From IMG/VR virus record IMGVR_UViG_2690316273_000004, positions 1 through 5,534 of that record: a DNA stretch of 5,534 nucleotides; one strand, 5' to 3'. Below are positions 1 to 5,534 of the stretch, in pieces. Each line of letters begins with the position of its first letter. Positions within the stretch are counted from its first letter, which is position 1. The stretch is from a virus (Duplodnaviria; Heunggongvirae; Uroviricota; Caudoviricetes). The position numbers and the translations under genes are program-made. Under the pieces are notes generated by a model. It was not told the DNA's origin and searched no databases. It was given only the letters and a program-made list of their open reading frames with translations.

Positions 1-26
1 ATGACAAGATGTGTATCTACCTTAAC

Positions 27-728
27 TTAATGATTTTGATAAAAATCATTAGGGGATTCATCAGTGTTTAGCATGCTCGCGATACGGTATTCAGGCGGAG
101 TACCTTCATCATCGTCTTTTTGCTGATCGCGCATTTCCTGCACCAGGCGAATACACGTATCCCTGGCGTTCTCCAGCATAAGGAGATGAGAAAGAGACTT
201 TTCAAGAAGAGTGGTTTCCAGAACATCGGCCCCGGACCGACGCAACATAGCGCGCGCGGCCTTCCGCGCTTCAACGTTATCTATCAGGTAATCGCCAGCT
301 TCGAATTCAAAGCGTTCACCATCATCATCCAGGGTGTCGCGTTCCAGGCGATCACGTAAGGTCCGGTGGGCGCGGGTGATCACGTCATGATCATCTGAAC
401 GATCATTTATGCGCTTATTTTGGCGCTTCGCATTCTCGACTGCGGCACTGACAACGGCATTAACTCTCTGTTTTTCCGCTATTTCAGCCGCAATATGATC
501 ACCTGCATGTTGATCATTAGAGTGATCAATGATCATGCTTTTTAGTGGCTTCCTGACTGGCTTATTTGGCTTGCGGCTGTCCGCAGTCCTAGTGTCTTCT
601 TTGAAGGCACGGAGATAACGACGTGCGGTATTAGGGTTAAGATTAAACTCGGCGGCATACTGTGCGATGGTGTAACCACCATCTCGCGCCAGGCGAGCAA
701 AATTCTTCTTGTGATCGTCCCAGGTCAC
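27..728 (-). CDS. Phage-associated DNA-binding protein with N-terminal helix-turn-helix (233 aa); function unresolved, possibly a regulator or small-terminase-like protein
   Basis: Long minus-strand ORF from the track. GTG start at 728 preceded by AAAGGAAG about 5 nt upstream (seen in sequence). N-terminus [22 protein letters not shown] has an HTH-like pattern, followed by a charged, acidic and Arg-rich region. Product is a guess. Confidence 0.55.
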
Positions 729-785
729 TTATGCTTCCTTTCGTAAAAACTCTTTTTGACGCGAGGGTAACGAAAGTCACATGTC

Positions 786-803
786 AAAAGGCCCGGAACG
801 GGC
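786..803 (-). terminator. Candidate weak intrinsic terminator: 5-bp GC stem (GCCCG/CGGGC, loop of 3) followed on the minus transcript by CUUUUG
   Basis: Hairpin gcccggaacgggc at 791-803 lies 11 nt beyond the stop of the 814-1266 gene. Stem is short and the U-run is only 4 nt. Confidence 0.2.
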
Positions 804-813
804 AAGCAATCAA

Positions 814-1266
814 TCAGATACGTGCGGATGTGGCATTACCGTAATGACGGTGCTGACGGGCCACCTTATTGAAAAGTTGACGCGCCATTACCCAAGGCTG
901 GTGCTCCCGGCGTTCCTTTTCGTCCTGCGTCATATAGAGTTCGTTCTGGAGTTTTTCATCAAACCGGCGCGGCGCGCGGCTGCGGCGAAAGAATTCAGGA
1001 TTCAAAGAGTGGATCTGAAATCTACGTGGGCGTGTACTGTCATCAATCAAAACAGACGAATACTTAGACACAGCGATAGCCTTTAAGCGCAGATAAACGT
1101 CGCGCTTATCGACATCCAGATGCGGGTATTCCTTTTCAAGGATTGCTGCGAGTTCTTTCGCTGATAGAAGAGACTTAGTGCGGATCATGTAATCCGCAAT
1201 CTCATACGATGTTATTCGTGAGTGATTTATTTCCATGAAGTGGCGTCCCTGCCAGTTAAGTAACAT
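814..1266 (-). CDS. Hypothetical phage protein (150 aa), Arg-rich, no Cys
   Basis: Minus-strand ORF from the track. ATG at 1266 preceded by AGGTGA 4 nt upstream. An internal ATG 10 codons in (MEINHS) is an alternative start. No recognisable motif. Confidence 0.5.
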   Translation of the reverse strand: MLLNWQGRHFMEINHSRITSYEIADYMIRTKSLLSAKELAAILEKEYPHLDVDKRDVYLRLKAIAVSKYSSVLIDDSTRPRRFQIHSLNPEFFRRSRAPRRFDEKLQNELYMTQDEKERREHQPWVMARQLFNKVARQHRHYGNATSARI

Positions 1267-1311
1267 CCTGTCACCTACTGATTAGCCCATGTCAACTAAT
1301 CAACGTGGAAT

Positions 1312-1339
1312 ATAATACCCTCTATTAAAGAAATAGCAA
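1312..1339 (-). promoter_or_regulatory. Candidate sigma70 promoter for the 814-1266 gene: -35 TTGCTA (1334-1339), 16-bp spacer, -10 TATTAT (1312-1317), read on the minus strand
   Basis: Hexamers read directly from the reverse complement of the 1267-1354 intergenic region. Purely a sequence-pattern call. Confidence 0.2.
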
Positions 1340-1354
1340 TACATTAGAGCAATT

Positions 1355-2398
1355 TTATCTAACGCTCGACGAGTGACTTGTGATAGCGCCGACTCCAAGC
1401 GCGTAATCAAAGAACAATCGTTGATGCATCGCCAGCCTACCGTGCGTCTTCTCCCAATTATCGCGGTCACGCTCAATATCACGCTGGCATGACTGGCACA
1501 GAGGAATTGCGTAAATGTCATGCGCGCATAATCGACTATGACGAACGATATAAGGCGTAATGTGAGCGCCAGCTCCCGCCGCTCCACACCCACAGCATGG
1601 ACGGGAAGCAACAAAGTCCATGTACTCAGGTAATTTTAGCGATTGCAGTTTTGGTATTTTGAAATGCGCCATGCCAGGGTCGGAGTCAACATCCACAGAG
1701 CATACTTTTGCACGCATCGGCGCGGCGCGTTCTTCCATCATCTGAACATATGCTGTAGCGCGATCGTCATACGGGCGAATATCCGCCTCTTTCAGAGGTC
1801 CGCTATCCTGCGTTGCGGCTTTCATCTTATTTATTGATATACGGCAAACTTCTTCCGGCATCAGGTGCATCATGTTGCGCATGAAAGCCCACCAGCACAG
1901 TTCCTGAATACTTAAATCATGGCCATCTGAAAGCCCCATTTCCTGACGGGCGACATCCAGTATCCAGTTAACGCGATTATTATGCAGCGTTTCTTTCAGC
2001 TCATTAAAACCACGCATCCGGTAATGGTTATCGTGATGCCAGCACAACAACACCGCGCTATTGTCTCGTTCTGCGTGGACAATATGGTTGTCACACCAGC
2101 TACGATCTGCGGCCTGGCATTGCCCCTCTTTCCTGCGCAACCACGCCACCAGCGAGTCAATTCCACCAATACGGCGAAACAGTTCATCGCTGTTAAAAAA
2201 CGGCTGCAACGCCTCATTTGTTGCCATAGTTTGCTCGGAAACAACGAGGCCGTCGTCCATGTGCTCGATTAACTCACGCGGCACCGGCTCCATAATAAAT
2301 TTACGGCCAGCCTCCACCAGCTTTCTGACTTCCTGATCCACTTTGAATGTGGCGACGCCAAGCTCTTTTTGTACAAAGGGAGTAATTACGGCTTTCAC
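1355..2398 (-). CDS. DUF968/YdfU-like prophage protein (347 aa) with two Cys/His clusters, putative zinc-binding HNH-like domains
   Basis: Minus-strand ORF from the track. GTG start at 2398 with GAAAGG Shine-Dalgarno. Cys/His clusters [17 protein letters not shown]...LCWHHDNH and CCGCG...H...LCAHD...CQSC. Size and motif pattern match my recollection of E. coli Qin-prophage YdfU (DUF968); not verified by search. Confidence 0.6.
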
Positions 2399-2425
2399 AT
2401 CACACCTTTCATCACTGATTGGGCT

Positions 2426-2626
2426 TTATCTGCTGCCCGGCATTCTCTGTTTAAGCACAACCATTTCCTGACGGCATAACACAGCAATAGCGGTCCTGGC
2501 ACCAATTTGCTTACCAACCAGGTATTGCTTTACCTCGCGGCGACTCACGCCATCAAGAAGCATCTTTAACGCTTCACGGGACAATTTGTTGTATTTACAT
2601 GCCATTAATCTACTCCGCGGAACCAT
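2426..2626 (-). CDS. Small hypothetical protein (66 aa from ATG 2626, or 59 aa from ATG 2605), translationally coupled to the doc 3' end
   Basis: Minus-strand ORF from the track. Its start overlaps the doc stop (2610-2612) by 17 nt, or lies 4 nt downstream of it if ATG 2605 is used. Its stop (2426-2428) is in frame with and 27 nt upstream of the DUF968 start. Basic, possibly DNA-binding; no family recognised. Confidence 0.4.
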
Positions 2627-2990
2627 ACAATCTACGTAACGTGTCGGCGACAGAAGATACAGATATCTCTCCGGTCGCAGCCCCTACGGTAAGGTCTGCC
2701 AGTTCAGGTGAATCAAATACCTGCACCCCGTTACGGCGTAGAAATAACAGCGCACTGTTTAGCGCGGTACGCTTATTGGCATCATTGAATATATGCCCTC
2801 TCGCTGTAGCCACCAGGTAGGTGGCGGAGACTTCGAAAAGGTCGGTGATCTCTTCGTAGGCAACTCTGGCCTGAACTCTCCCGATAATGGCCTCTGCCCT
2901 ACCCGGATCTGACATTCCCGGCAGGCCGCCGTAGCGGTTTATATTCGCATCATGAAGCGCAATAAGTTCTTCCGGTGATATATGCCTCAT
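2610..2990 (-). CDS. doc: Doc toxin (death on curing), Fic/Doc-family kinase, 126 aa
   Basis: Translation [16 protein letters not shown]...[30 protein letters not shown]...LRRLYGSAE matches phage P1 Doc as I recall it. Fic motif HIFNDANKR is intact at 2769-2795. ATG at 2988-2990 overlaps the phd stop by 1 nt. Confidence 0.93.
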
Positions 2991-3211
2991 TATCGGTTAA
3001 CCAGTTCCTTGTTGGTGGAGTCCAGGGTGTCAAACAGGGATGCAAATTCAGCATCCAGCGCCGCTTTTTTGTAGGCTTCGAAAGTAGCCTTGCTGACAAT
3101 TACTGCTGGCTCACGGCCTCTGCGGGTGATTTCAACCTCTTCCCCGGCTTCAACATTGTTGAGCACTTCAGAAAGGTTGCCACGCGCGGTACGGAAGTTA
3201 ATGGATTGCAT
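2990..3211 (-). CDS. phd: Phd antitoxin (prevent host death), 73 aa
   Basis: Translation from ATG 3211, [73 protein letters not shown], matches P1 Phd as I recall it. The track ORF begins 2 codons earlier at a GTG (3217); ATG 3211 with GAGGTG upstream is preferred. Confidence 0.93.
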
Positions 3212-3250
3212 AAACACCTCGTGTACTCGTTATGTGTACACAATTATAAA
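3212..3250 (-). promoter_or_regulatory. phd-doc promoter/operator: -10 TATAAT (3243-3248, minus strand) followed by perfect 10-bp palindrome TGTGTACACA (3233-3242), a second GTGTAC half-site (3221-3226) and GAGGTG Shine-Dalgarno
   Basis: Palindromes and -10 read directly from the sequence. Two palindromic Phd/Doc-binding operator sites overlapping the promoter is the known architecture of P1 phd-doc autoregulation. No good -35 was found. Confidence 0.5.
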
Positions 3251-3321
3251 CTTCACAAGCATAAAGCACCAGCACTTTGCAGCTTAAATCACCGGACAAT
3301 CGTCAAACTCCCCACTTCGGG

Positions 3322-3340
3322 CATCATTGATGAAATGATG
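3322..3340. repeat. Perfect 7-bp inverted repeat catcatt-gatga-aatgatg
   Basis: Seen directly. Lies 16 nt beyond the stop of the 3356-3820 gene and about 75 nt upstream of the phd -10. AT-rich stem and no U-run, so not a canonical terminator; possible protein-binding site. Confidence 0.4.
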
Positions 3341-3355
3341 TGGTCACACCAAACT

Positions 3356-3820
3356 TTAATCTTCAAGGTCTGCTTCTGATACCACTGTATAACCCAGAAA
3401 TATTTTAATCTCATCCCACAATCCCATGATCTTGCCTTCATACTCTGATGGTTCTCTTACAATTACTGAATCTGGGGGAGAGTGAGCCTCTAATTCGGTT
3501 ATGATCTCATGGCAAAGATTATGTTTGTAATATTGTTTTAGTTGCTCTCGAATAGGTTTTGGCGCACTTTCAATAGTTTCTTTTGCGGCATTTAGTGAAA
3601 GAATTATATTACTTGCGTCATTAACATCCCAGTCTGATCCAGCTTTTCCTGTTGCTATTTTATTTGCCCTATCAGCAAAGTTTATCAATGCTTCACTATA
3701 AAATTTTTCCTTATCGAATAATCCAAGCTTTTTACTTGTGCGCAAACTAATAAAAGCAGCTATTGCTGACCCAAATGCCGCAATAGCTGATGCCCAATCG
3801 GGATTGATATGAAGAAACAT
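3356..3820 (-). CDS. Hypothetical membrane-anchored protein (154 aa), AT-rich gene
   Basis: Minus-strand ORF from the track. N-terminal hydrophobic segment WASAIAAFGSAIAAFISL followed by a basic stretch, consistent with a signal-anchor, then a hydrophilic domain. Clearly AT-rich, so likely horizontally acquired. Confidence 0.55.
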   Translation of the reverse strand: MFLHINPDWASAIAAFGSAIAAFISLRTSKKLGLFDKEKFYSEALINFADRANKIATGKAGSDWDVNDASNIILSLNAAKETIESAPKPIREQLKQYYKHNLCHEIITELEAHSPPDSVIVREPSEYEGKIMGLWDEIKIFLGYTVVSEADLED

Positions 3821-3858
3821 GCTATCTCTACCTAATGCCAGATCTTTAACCTAGAAAT

Positions 3859-3886
3859 ATTGTATCAGTAGTTATGGCTTTGCCAC
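3859..3886 (-). promoter_or_regulatory. Candidate promoter for the 3356-3820 gene: -35 GTGGCA (3881-3886), 16-bp spacer, -10 TACAAT (3859-3864), read on the minus strand
   Basis: Hexamers read from the reverse complement of the 84-nt intergenic region 3821-3904. The -35 is weak. Confidence 0.2.
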
Positions 3887-3904
3887 CAGTAATGCGATTT
3901 TTTC

Positions 3905-4564
3905 CTAGTTGTCATTGCCCCCTACCAACGACAATAAAGCCCTGGCCATCTTATGAACCAACAGTGCATCAATAATGCCAAGCGTATGCCCCGGCTTAAT
4001 GTTTAATGCTGCCTCAAGATGCCCCCTTTCCAGACCGCTTTTCTCGGCTTGTTTATGATGATATGGCGTAATAACGTCGCCCAAAACACGGCTAATTCTT
4101 TCTCGTAATTGCTGGGTGCCAGCACACTTGATCGCTGTATCGTGGAGACGGTTAACCAGTTCGCGATAAACATGCGGCTTAATGCGGATACGTTCACCGG
4201 TGACGCCCTTTCCTGGCGCTGGCACCGAACTATCCGGAATATCCGGATAGTTGCCAGCCTCGTAAGCTACCCGCAGCCAGTGCATGAATGTTTCAGTGGA
4301 CACACAACCACAGTCCACATCGATTTTTCCGCGTTGCTGTTCCAGCCACTGCTCAAAATTCAATCTACACGTATTACTTTCATGTTGCTCTTTTTGTCTC
4401 AAGGCCAGCACCTGTTGGGCCAGTTCCAGAACGATACCGGGTGACGCTAACCTCTCAAATTCCAATAAATAGTTTGCGTCAGGATGACAAGTAGCCTCGC
4501 CTGCAAAAAATACCAATTGCTGTAAGTATGCTGTCGTTAGAGTAGTCATTTCTTTTTGCGCCAT
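3905..4564 (-). CDS. Hypothetical soluble protein (219 aa) containing several Cys/His residues, unknown function
   Basis: Minus-strand ORF from the track, about 50% GC. ATG 4564 lies inside the 3' end of the upstream membrane-protein gene (19-nt overlap). Contains CHPD, TCRLN and DCGC. No Walker A or other catalytic motif recognised. Confidence 0.6.
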   Translation of the reverse strand: MAQKEMTTLTTAYLQQLVFFAGEATCHPDANYLLEFERLASPGIVLELAQQVLALRQKEQHESNTCRLNFEQWLEQQRGKIDVDCGCVSTETFMHWLRVAYEAGNYPDIPDSSVPAPGKGVTGERIRIKPHVYRELVNRLHDTAIKCAGTQQLRERISRVLGDVITPYHHKQAEKSGLERGHLEAALNIKPGHTLGIIDALLVHKMARALLSLVGGNDN

Positions 4565-4920
4565 TTCTTTTCACATTCCTTAGTCCATTTTTCAATGTTC
4601 ATTTTGGCAATATCAGTCATTCCATCACCTAAGAAATACTTTTTCCGGTATGTCTTGCACTTAAACCACACTACAACAGCCACCAGCCAGAAAATAAAAG
4701 GCCATACAGCAATACCAACGACAGCCGCGATAAAGCCCAATAGCCATAAATGAAGCTCTCCAACTTCTGTTTCCGGCAATATTCTTAAAGAATTAAACAG
4801 CAGGCTGAACGAATGGTCGTATGCATTGGCAGTATAAGACATGCAATCCATATAATTAAAGTCATAGCCTGCGGCTGCCGCCCATAATGGGCGGTCAAGA
4901 AAATGTTTTAGTGTCATCAT
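4546..4920 (-). CDS. Hypothetical membrane protein (124 aa): N-terminal soluble region, about 30-residue hydrophobic core, polybasic C-terminal tail
   Basis: Minus-strand ORF from the track. Hydrophobic core LHLWLLGFIAAVVGIAVWPFIFWLVAVVVWF (one long helix or a hairpin). C-terminus ends KKWRKKK. Start is 6 nt after the upstream gene stop; no strong Shine-Dalgarno, so probably coupled. Confidence 0.55.
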   Translation of the reverse strand: MMTLKHFLDRPLWAAAAGYDFNYMDCMSYTANAYDHSFSLLFNSLRILPETEVGELHLWLLGFIAAVVGIAVWPFIFWLVAVVVWFKCKTYRKKYFLGDGMTDIAKMNIEKWTKECEKKWRKKK

Positions 4921-4926
4921 ATAAAT

Positions 4927-5220
4927 TTAAGGTTCAGACCAGTTATCTTCAATAGCAATGCTTAATCTTTGTAGCCATTCTGCTAATTTCAGCATTGCTT
5001 CTCTTTCGCTTAAACCACGAGGAAAATCATCAAGCGAAATTGTTGGCTTGAATCCACCGTAATTATCCATTTCAACTGTCAGATTTTGTTCCAGCAAGGT
5101 ATTTCTTACGCGGCTATTGTGCCGGAGCAAATATACTGAGCGTGATTTATTGGTTTTGTGGTCTAGCTTATATTCGGTAAGTATCATCTGGCTTTTGCCA
5201 TGACTATTACCTCTCCACAT
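4927..5220 (-). CDS. Hypothetical small soluble protein (97 aa), AT-rich gene
   Basis: The track ORF runs 4927-5316 from a TTG. I prefer ATG 5220 (MWRGNSHGKSQMILTEYK...) because it is preceded by GAGGT at 5-nt spacing and the N-terminal extension overlaps a better small ORF in another frame. Confidence 0.5.
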   Translation of the reverse strand: MWRGNSHGKSQMILTEYKLDHKTNKSRSVYLLRHNSRVRNTLLEQNLTVEMDNYGGFKPTISLDDFPRGLSEREAMLKLAEWLQRLSIAIEDNWSEP

Positions 5221-5227
5221 ACTTACC

Positions 5228-5350
5228 TCACTTAATAAAACAACTCCATGCGTAGTTGATGATTTTTTCCCACGCAATATAAATCTGCACTCCGGCAGTA
5301 AAACCAAAGCCAACAATTGCTGAAAAAATCAAAACATTTACTTTTGACAT
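5228..5350 (-). CDS. Candidate small hydrophobic peptide (40 aa, single predicted transmembrane helix); not in the ORF track
   Basis: Hand-translated from the reverse complement: MSKVNVLIFSAIVGFGFTAGVQIYIAWEKIINYAWSCFIK. ATG at 5348-5350, TGA at 5228-5230. Its stop overlaps the GAGGT Shine-Dalgarno of the next gene. Short ORFs are error-prone calls. Confidence 0.3.
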   Translation of the reverse strand: MSKVNVLIFSAIVGFGFTAGVQIYIAWEKIINYAWSCFIK

Positions 5351-5534
5351 TATAAATTTTCTCTCGGTGTCGTAGGTGATAGCACCATAATTGATAATTT
5401 AGTGAGTTAGCAGTTCCATTTTTTTGATGATTTCCGCATGAGCATCATCGTTATCAACACTTAGCTCTGAGAGATCCCCTCATAATTTCCCCAAAACGTA
5501 ACCATGTGTGAATAGATTTTGAGTAAGCAGGGTT

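Follow-up and report, generated by a model that had tools for sequence, protein, structure and literature searches.

Escherichia coli P1-like plasmid prophage sequence carrying a P1-type phd-doc addiction module, very probably in its native position

The stretch of DNA analysed here (5534 bp, referred to as the window) is with high probability a 5.4-kb piece of an E. coli P1-like plasmid prophage (a Punavirus-type phage-plasmid), in which the phd-doc genes occupy their native position. No feature of the sequence speaks against this assignment. The segment presumably still sits on an autonomous plasmid; the P1 repA/par, c1 immunity and structural genes lie outside the contig. A sequence-only reading of the window had proposed that phd-doc was acquired as a unit in a foreign context. 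The alignment to P1, carried out as had been set beforehand, showed instead that positions 65–5466 are colinear with a P1-like plasmid prophage at 98.5% identity. This colinearity in one piece refutes the idea of a foreign context. The occurrence of phd-doc in a P1 setting is already known, and we are dealing with a textbook module in its ordinary location.

Colinearity was assessed with alignments to P1 and P1-like plasmids. In pairwise BLAST, window positions 65–5466 gave a single alignment of 5403 columns (98.5% identity) to the E. coli plasmid p79-13-647b (NZ_JBUBJX010000003); the alignment runs to 5467, a base that is also the first base of the insertion sequence at the right-hand end of the window. 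Against P1 (NC_005856), positions 65–3353 aligned at 97.75% identity over 3289 columns, uninterrupted from pacA to the 3' end of humD, and positions 3924–4265 were 94% identical at the nucleotide level to the pmgU/pmgT region. Beyond phd-doc, the homology to P1 spans a further 2545 bp downstream of doc, with pdcA, pdcB, lpa, pacA and the pac site, and on the other side it reaches 142 bp upstream of phd, where it enters humD. Megablast against phage records returned P1, P7, SJ46, RCS47, D6 and other P1-like phages at 96–98% identity. At least 80% of the window was present in one place in 222 complete E. coli genomes and in 194 PLSDB plasmids, and the closest relatives were all P1-like plasmids of ∼95–100 kb. 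In a published comparison of 54 representative P1-like phage-plasmids, phd, doc, pdcB and pacA counted among the 21 most conserved genes (PMC9603915).

The phd-doc module and its control elements comprise the following features:

2610–2990, minus strand: doc, encoding a toxin with a Fic fold (EF-Tu kinase) of 126 residues.
2990–3211, minus strand: phd, encoding the antitoxin and autorepressor of 73 residues.
3221–3242, minus strand: predicted phd-doc operator, composed of the perfect palindrome TGTGTACACA (3233–3242) and the imperfect second site GAGTACAC (3221–3228); identical to P1.
3243–3271, minus strand: predicted sigma-70 promoter Pphd, with a −10 box TATAAT (3243–3248) and a −35 box TGGTGC (3266–3271).

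Phd was identical to P1 Phd (NC_005856) in all 73 residues, and its sequence equals that of UniProt entry PHD_BPP1. Doc matched P1 Doc in 125 of 126 residues, the sole change (S18N) being located outside the Fic motif. At the nucleotide level, 8 of the 381 positions of doc differed from P1, 7 of them synonymously, and 1 of the 222 positions of phd, also synonymously; taken together, eight of the nine differences are synonymous, which indicates purifying selection. Residues 66–74 of Doc read HIFNDANKR, an intact Fic motif that conforms to the Doc-type motif HxFx(D/N)(A/G)NKR, in which Lys73 replaces the Fic glycine. The phd gene lies directly upstream of doc in the same operon and codes for an antitoxin of the Phd/YefM family; its TAA stop codon and the ATG start codon of doc share base 2990 (TAATG, an overlap of 1 nt). 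We took the ATG at 3211 as the start of phd, the GTG at 3217 in the list of open reading frames (75 residues) not being the P1 start and adding two residues. Thus far the sequence-only reading was accurate: it had described near-identity of both proteins to those of P1, an intact HIFNDANKR motif with no inactivating changes, and the 1-nt overlap.

Profile searches agreed with these assignments. Doc scored 38.6 bits against Pfam Fic (cutoff 24) and 133.1 bits against TIGR01550 DOC_P1 (cutoff 38.65), and it matched the crystallised P1 Doc (PDB 3K33, E = 8e-78; also 3DD7 and 3KH2). Phd scored 49.8 bits against PF02604 PhdYeFM_antitox (cutoff 29.8) and 48.1 bits against TIGR01552 phd_fam (cutoff 20.8). 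The exact Doc sequence with S18N was found on at least 1000 public contigs, which argues that the substitution is neutral. Residue 18 adjoins a conserved RYGG stretch.

The promoter and operator were assessed by direct pattern tests and by comparison with the P1 annotation. A generic promoter scan missed Pphd because the −35 box is weak, and an inverted-repeat finder missed the operator because the arms of the palindrome are shorter than its seed. Both promoter hexamers are identical to the annotated P1 hexamers (6/6 each). The 28-nt stretch TATAAT-TGTGTACACA-TAAC-GAGTACAC (3221–3248, minus strand) is identical to the P1 −10 box and operator, bearing out the earlier description of a palindromic operator beside a TATAAT −10 box. 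In the window it is found a single time (0.00 occurrences expected by chance), as is the 10-bp palindrome TGTGTACACA alone (0.01 expected). For the E. coli/P1 system, a pair of adjacent palindromic Phd sites has been described (PMC13034048), and the predicted autoregulatory operator in the window likewise consists of two such sites overlapping the promoter.

Judged by its sequence, phd-doc in the window is a P1-type addiction module without inactivating changes, and it probably works as in P1, stabilising the element that carries it. The mechanism proposed here is drawn from the near-identity to the experimentally studied P1 module. Transcription from Pphd would yield phd and then doc, with translation of the two coupled via the TAATG overlap. 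The C-terminus of Phd would bind Doc, which is thereby neutralised. Phd is degraded by ClpXP; because the antitoxin is proteolytically unstable, cells that have lost the plasmid would be arrested or killed (death on curing). Doc, as a Fic-fold kinase with the Doc-specific Lys73, would phosphorylate EF-Tu at Thr382, upon which translation stops; the kinase activity on Thr382 and the inversion of the ATP orientation by Lys73 have been reported (PMC7180214). A Phd dimer would bind the pair of neighbouring palindromes that lie immediately downstream of the −10 box, with the degree of repression set by the Doc:Phd ratio, that is, by the conditional cooperativity known from phd-doc regulation (PMC3920265). 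A role in phage defence had also been suggested; PADLOC lent it no support, giving weak Fic-domain matches for Doc to candidate systems and none for the neighbouring genes.

Downstream of doc, the window contains the following genes and sites:

2426–2626, minus strand: pdcA; 63/66 residues identical to P1 PdcA; phrog_3345.
1355–2398, minus strand: pdcB (DUF968, HNH-like); 334/347 residues identical to P1 PdcB; Pfam DUF968, E = 2.4e-50.
1312–1353, minus strand: promoter Plpa and C1 repressor operator Olpa (1337–1353); 27/28 and 17/17 nt identical to P1, respectively.
814–1266, minus strand: lpa (gene 10), late promoter activator; 150/150 residues identical to P1 Lpa.
764–782, minus strand: late promoter LPpac; 19/19 nt identical to the annotated P1 feature.
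349–540: P1 packaging site pac, flanked by hexamers that contain GATC, with cleavage region (444–453) and IHF site (461–473).
27–728, minus strand: pacA', gene for the terminase subunit PacA, which an insertion sequence interrupts after codon 221 of 397; a 12-codon tail comes from the insertion sequence.

The P1 gene order pacA-lpa-pdcB-pdcA-doc-phd is present in the window together with the control sites (pac, LPpac and Plpa/Olpa). The P1 annotation (NC_005856) has the same order, humD-phd-doc-pdcA-pdcB-lpa-pacA, and the published P1 gene table reads hot-lxr-humD-phd-doc-pdcA-pdcB-lpa-pacA-pacB (PMC10695390). The pdcA product has 66 residues in the P1 annotation and 59 in RefSeq calls, which start at the ATG at 2605. 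The pac region is identical to P1 in 179 of 181 nt, including the entire cleavage decamer (10/10). The start of pacA' is that of P1 pacA, and residues 1–221 match the phrog_1711 terminase, not phrog_1779; P1 homology ends at window position 65. The flanks of phd-doc had been considered foreign to P1. For the DUF968 gene this was mistaken, since it is P1 pdcB; for the side upstream of phd, from 3354 onward, it was correct with respect to reference P1.

Both ends of the window are formed by insertion sequences:

1–64, minus strand: transposase-proximal outside end of an IS10/ISVsa5 copy situated to the left; 64/64 nt identical to NZ_CP027199 3266–3329.
5467–5534, minus strand: inside end of a second IS10/ISVsa5 copy situated to the right; 68/68 nt identical to NZ_CP027199 2001–2068.

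The window is an entire short-read contig of 5534 bp (CYEU01000077.1) from draft assembly GCA_001284625.1, and its ends are IS10/ISVsa5 termini at which the short-read assembly broke. The ISVsa5/IS10 annotated in NZ_CP027199 measures 1329 bp, and its two termini match the window ends at 100%. The two copies (IS4 family) point the same way, and only 64 and 68 nt of them lie inside the window, the IS bodies and any 9-bp target-site duplications falling beyond the contig. The only recorded contig with the fusion protein of truncated PacA is CYEU01000077.1, the window itself. A search of 72,556 PLSDB plasmids, 5,426 complete E. coli genomes and the species representatives of GTDB returned neither of the two junctions. 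The IS10 target consensus is NGCTNAGCN, and the nonamers on the P1 side of the junctions, TGTTTAGCA and CACTTAGCT, each agree with it in 5 of the 6 specified bases. An intact pacA, as expected of a functional phage, is lacking, the gene being cut after codon 221. The disruption by the IS copy implies that the element is not an intact phage and that the prophage is unable to package its DNA unless a second copy of pacA exists. In a CRISPRi screen of P1, pacA was essential for plaque formation (PMC10695390).

The IS10 ends allow a different reading, in which the window is a 5.4-kb P1 remnant between two directly oriented IS10 copies that now resides on another replicon. Such a remnant could be a composite-transposon-like or translocatable unit, or else what IS-mediated deletions have left behind, kept because phd-doc penalises its loss. 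The termini at both ends of the window, their common orientation, the cut in pacA, and the lack of a match to either junction in the three collections searched (PLSDB, complete E. coli genomes, GTDB representatives) all speak for it. However, a contig that ends at a multicopy insertion sequence is the expected artefact of short reads and is silent on the sequence beyond. Moreover, TGTTTAGCA and CACTTAGCT fit the IS10 target just as expected had IS10 simply inserted twice into a P1-like plasmid that is otherwise intact, and the nearest relatives are without exception P1-like plasmids of ∼95–100 kb. On balance, we consider this reading unlikely. That the segment has in fact left a P1-like plasmid, as an IS10-bounded block with phd-doc, the pac site and orf154 (described below), appears, at slightly longer odds, improbable as well. 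If true, an IS10-bounded addiction unit could move to, or persist on, other replicons.

The disrupted pacA also bears on the state of the module. A phd-doc pair that is present but inactive, as a decaying toxin-antitoxin system in a defective prophage, would be in keeping with the packaging defect that results from the disruption and with the one substitution in Doc (S18N). We regard this as very unlikely: both open reading frames are full length, the promoter and operator are identical to those of P1, the nucleotide differences are synonymous in all but one case, and the catalytic motif of Doc is intact. Furthermore, an allele of Doc that occurs on at least 1000 contigs is unlike a private inactivating mutation.

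We return to the P1-like plasmid prophage and to the side upstream of phd, which has the following features:

3284–3353, minus strand: degenerate remnant of the humD 3' end; 63/69 nt identical to the terminal 69 nt of humD in P1.
3354–3923, minus strand: low-GC replacement segment of 570 bp with orf154 (3356–3820); no match in P1.
3905–4564, minus strand: orf219; C-terminal half PmgU-like, N-terminal half unrelated to P1.
4546–4920, minus strand: orf124, membrane protein; phrog_2638.
4927–5220, minus strand: orf97; phrog_1258.
5228–5350, minus strand: orf40, membrane protein; phrog_5525.

Only this side, from 3354 onward, departs from reference P1. The humD remnant carries a 1-nt insertion at 3339 and in-frame stop codons, and its presence at the phd promoter implies that the lineage formerly had a P1-type humD-phd junction. 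At 3353/3354 the homology to P1, as well as to P1-like plasmids that carry humD (e.g. NZ_CP027199), comes to an end. The segment that follows stands in the place of P1 humD-lxr-hot-upfO-upfN-upfM-pmgV (2381 bp), and the GC content at 3300–3900 is 0.35–0.39, compared to ∼0.50 in the P1 core. The PmgU-like part of orf219 is 88.7% identical to P1 PmgU over 106 residues. The region from pmgT to humD is known as variable region 8 of P1-like phage-plasmids (PMC9603915). The upstream side is a variant of this hypervariable region and the sole departure from reference P1; recombination with a breakpoint inside humD very probably exchanged humD to pmgV for the low-GC segment encoding a 154-residue protein. 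Of the 5,426 complete E. coli genomes, 10 share the exact junction of phd, the humD remnant and orf154, in all cases on plasmids of 94–100 kb.

The genes upstream of phd had been described as AT-rich and as coding for membrane proteins. The first part holds, given the GC content of 0.35–0.39, and the second holds for orf124 and orf40, the only genes of this flank with clear transmembrane segments; orf154, orf219 and orf97 stayed below the Kyte-Doolittle threshold of 1.6. The PHROGs of orf154, orf219, orf124, orf97 and orf40 are all families with no assigned function.

The product of orf154 (154 residues, phrog_1779) has an N-terminal hydrophobic helix. It had no match in Pfam, NCBIfam or PADLOC, and a word-indexed search returned its own cluster only. 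Its family is tiny, with 21 representative clusters (E ≤ 0.001) out of 1.84 billion recovered by an exhaustive HMMER search; tblastn revealed relatives, 35% identical, in two lambdoid Escherichia phages. In one of these, PhiR26_1, rha and ybcN flank the relative, which lies in an accessory region at a distance of two genes from a PD-lambda-1 gene. AlphaFold, run on the single sequence, gave an all-helical model of low confidence (mean pLDDT 49.9). We conclude that orf154 belongs to the accessory genes of an accessory hotspot; it may have an uncharacterised role in exclusion or defence.

The independent acquisition of phd-doc as a cassette by an unrelated prophage-like element is extremely unlikely. 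In its favour, reference P1 lacks a counterpart of the upstream flank (3354–3923 and beyond 4265), and the cassette does move as a unit elsewhere: according to the P1 record, a 679-bp doc-phd-promoter block is 98% identical to sequence upstream of the EcoDXXI hsd locus in a conjugative plasmid unrelated to P1. Against it, the P1 homology passes both edges of the cassette (by 2545 bp past doc and 142 bp past phd), more than 200 P1-like plasmids are colinear with the entire window, and the non-reference flank itself belongs to P1-like plasmids and to phages, SJ46 and RCS47 among them. The foreign-context reading was accordingly rejected, the alignments to P1 and to P1-like plasmids continuing past phd-doc.

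Overall, the analysis re-identified a well-studied toxin-antitoxin module in its canonical setting; the finding matters little in itself, and the locus should not be flagged as a transplanted cassette. Two points are of minor use: (i) the P1-like element of this strain is packaging-defective owing to IS10 in pacA; and (ii) the known hypervariable region is present in the window as a rare allele with an uncharacterised gene for a 154-residue protein.

Compared with known systems, the module corresponds to P1 phd-doc (NC_005856, P1_gp104/gp105), with which it shares the same Phd, gene overlap, −10 and −35 boxes, two-site operator and downstream neighbours. It differs from P1 in the S18N substitution of Doc, a common natural allele, and in the reduction of humD to a remnant of ∼69 nt. 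Among the P1-like phage-plasmids of Enterobacteriaceae, several (p79-13-647b, pMINF_9A [NZ_LR890336] and others) are colinear with positions 65–5466 at 97.3–98.5% identity, including the humD-less junction and orf154, whereas the two IS10/ISVsa5 junctions, one of them in pacA, set the window apart from the records searched. Phages SJ46 and RCS47 also have the genes of the right-hand variable region. From 3354 onward, where the window departs from reference P1, it falls exactly inside the published hypervariable region from pmgT to humD; relative to that description, the window has a rare allele (10/5,426) in which orf154 replaces humD to pmgV.

The window begins (1-64) and ends (5467-5534) in termini of IS10/ISVsa5, each matching its end of this 1329-bp element with 100% identity; both termini lie in the same orientation. 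The window corresponds to the whole of the 5534-bp draft contig CYEU01000077.1 (assembly GCA_001284625.1), and the IS10/ISVsa5 ends are therefore assembly breaks at a repeat. Neither the left nor the right junction was found in PLSDB, complete E. coli genomes or GTDB representatives. The features discussed here are:

27-728, minus strand: the P1 terminase gene pacA (397 codons), which the left IS copy interrupts after codon 221
2426-2626, minus strand: pdcA, whose annotated start is inconsistent between records
3284-3353: degenerate remnant of the humD 3' end (~69 nt; 63/69 identical)
3356-3820, minus strand: orf154, within a low-GC segment (about 36%)
3905-4564, minus strand: orf219, a mosaic gene

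The cut made by the left IS copy in pacA produces a 233-aa fusion ORF, and the pac site (window about 349-540) is intact. Since pacA is essential for lytic growth of P1, the prophage should be packaging-defective.

Upstream of phd, the humD remnant contains in-frame stops and a 1-nt insertion, and it marks the recombination breakpoint at which the P1 genes from humD to pmgV were replaced. Residues 114-219 of orf219 are 88.7% identical to P1 PmgU (111 aa), the N-terminal 113 residues having no counterpart in P1; the exact orf219 sequence is borne by only 4 contigs. The orf154 product has a hydrophobic, alanine-rich N-terminus and belongs to phrog_1779, with no match in Pfam, NCBIfam or PADLOC; the quality of a single-sequence structure model was too poor for use. 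Its relatives formed only 21 representative clusters among the 1.84 billion proteins searched. One relative, 35% identical, is carried by the lambdoid phage PhiR26_1 (3899-4408 in the record used), in which a PD-lambda-1 defence gene lies two genes away.

Downstream of doc, the P1 record gives pdcA as a 66-aa ORF with a 17-nt overlap with the doc 3' end; RefSeq/PGAP and the source assembly give a 59-aa ORF starting at 2605. The doc-phd-promoter block of P1 measures 679 bp (5550-6228 of the reference P1 sequence used; 87969-88647 of the P1 record). A separate unit outside P1 is not what the window holds. According to a note in the P1 GenBank record, however, a conjugative plasmid carries, upstream of its EcoDXXI hsd locus, a sequence with 98% identity to this block, and the doc-phd cassette therefore occurs elsewhere as a unit outside P1.
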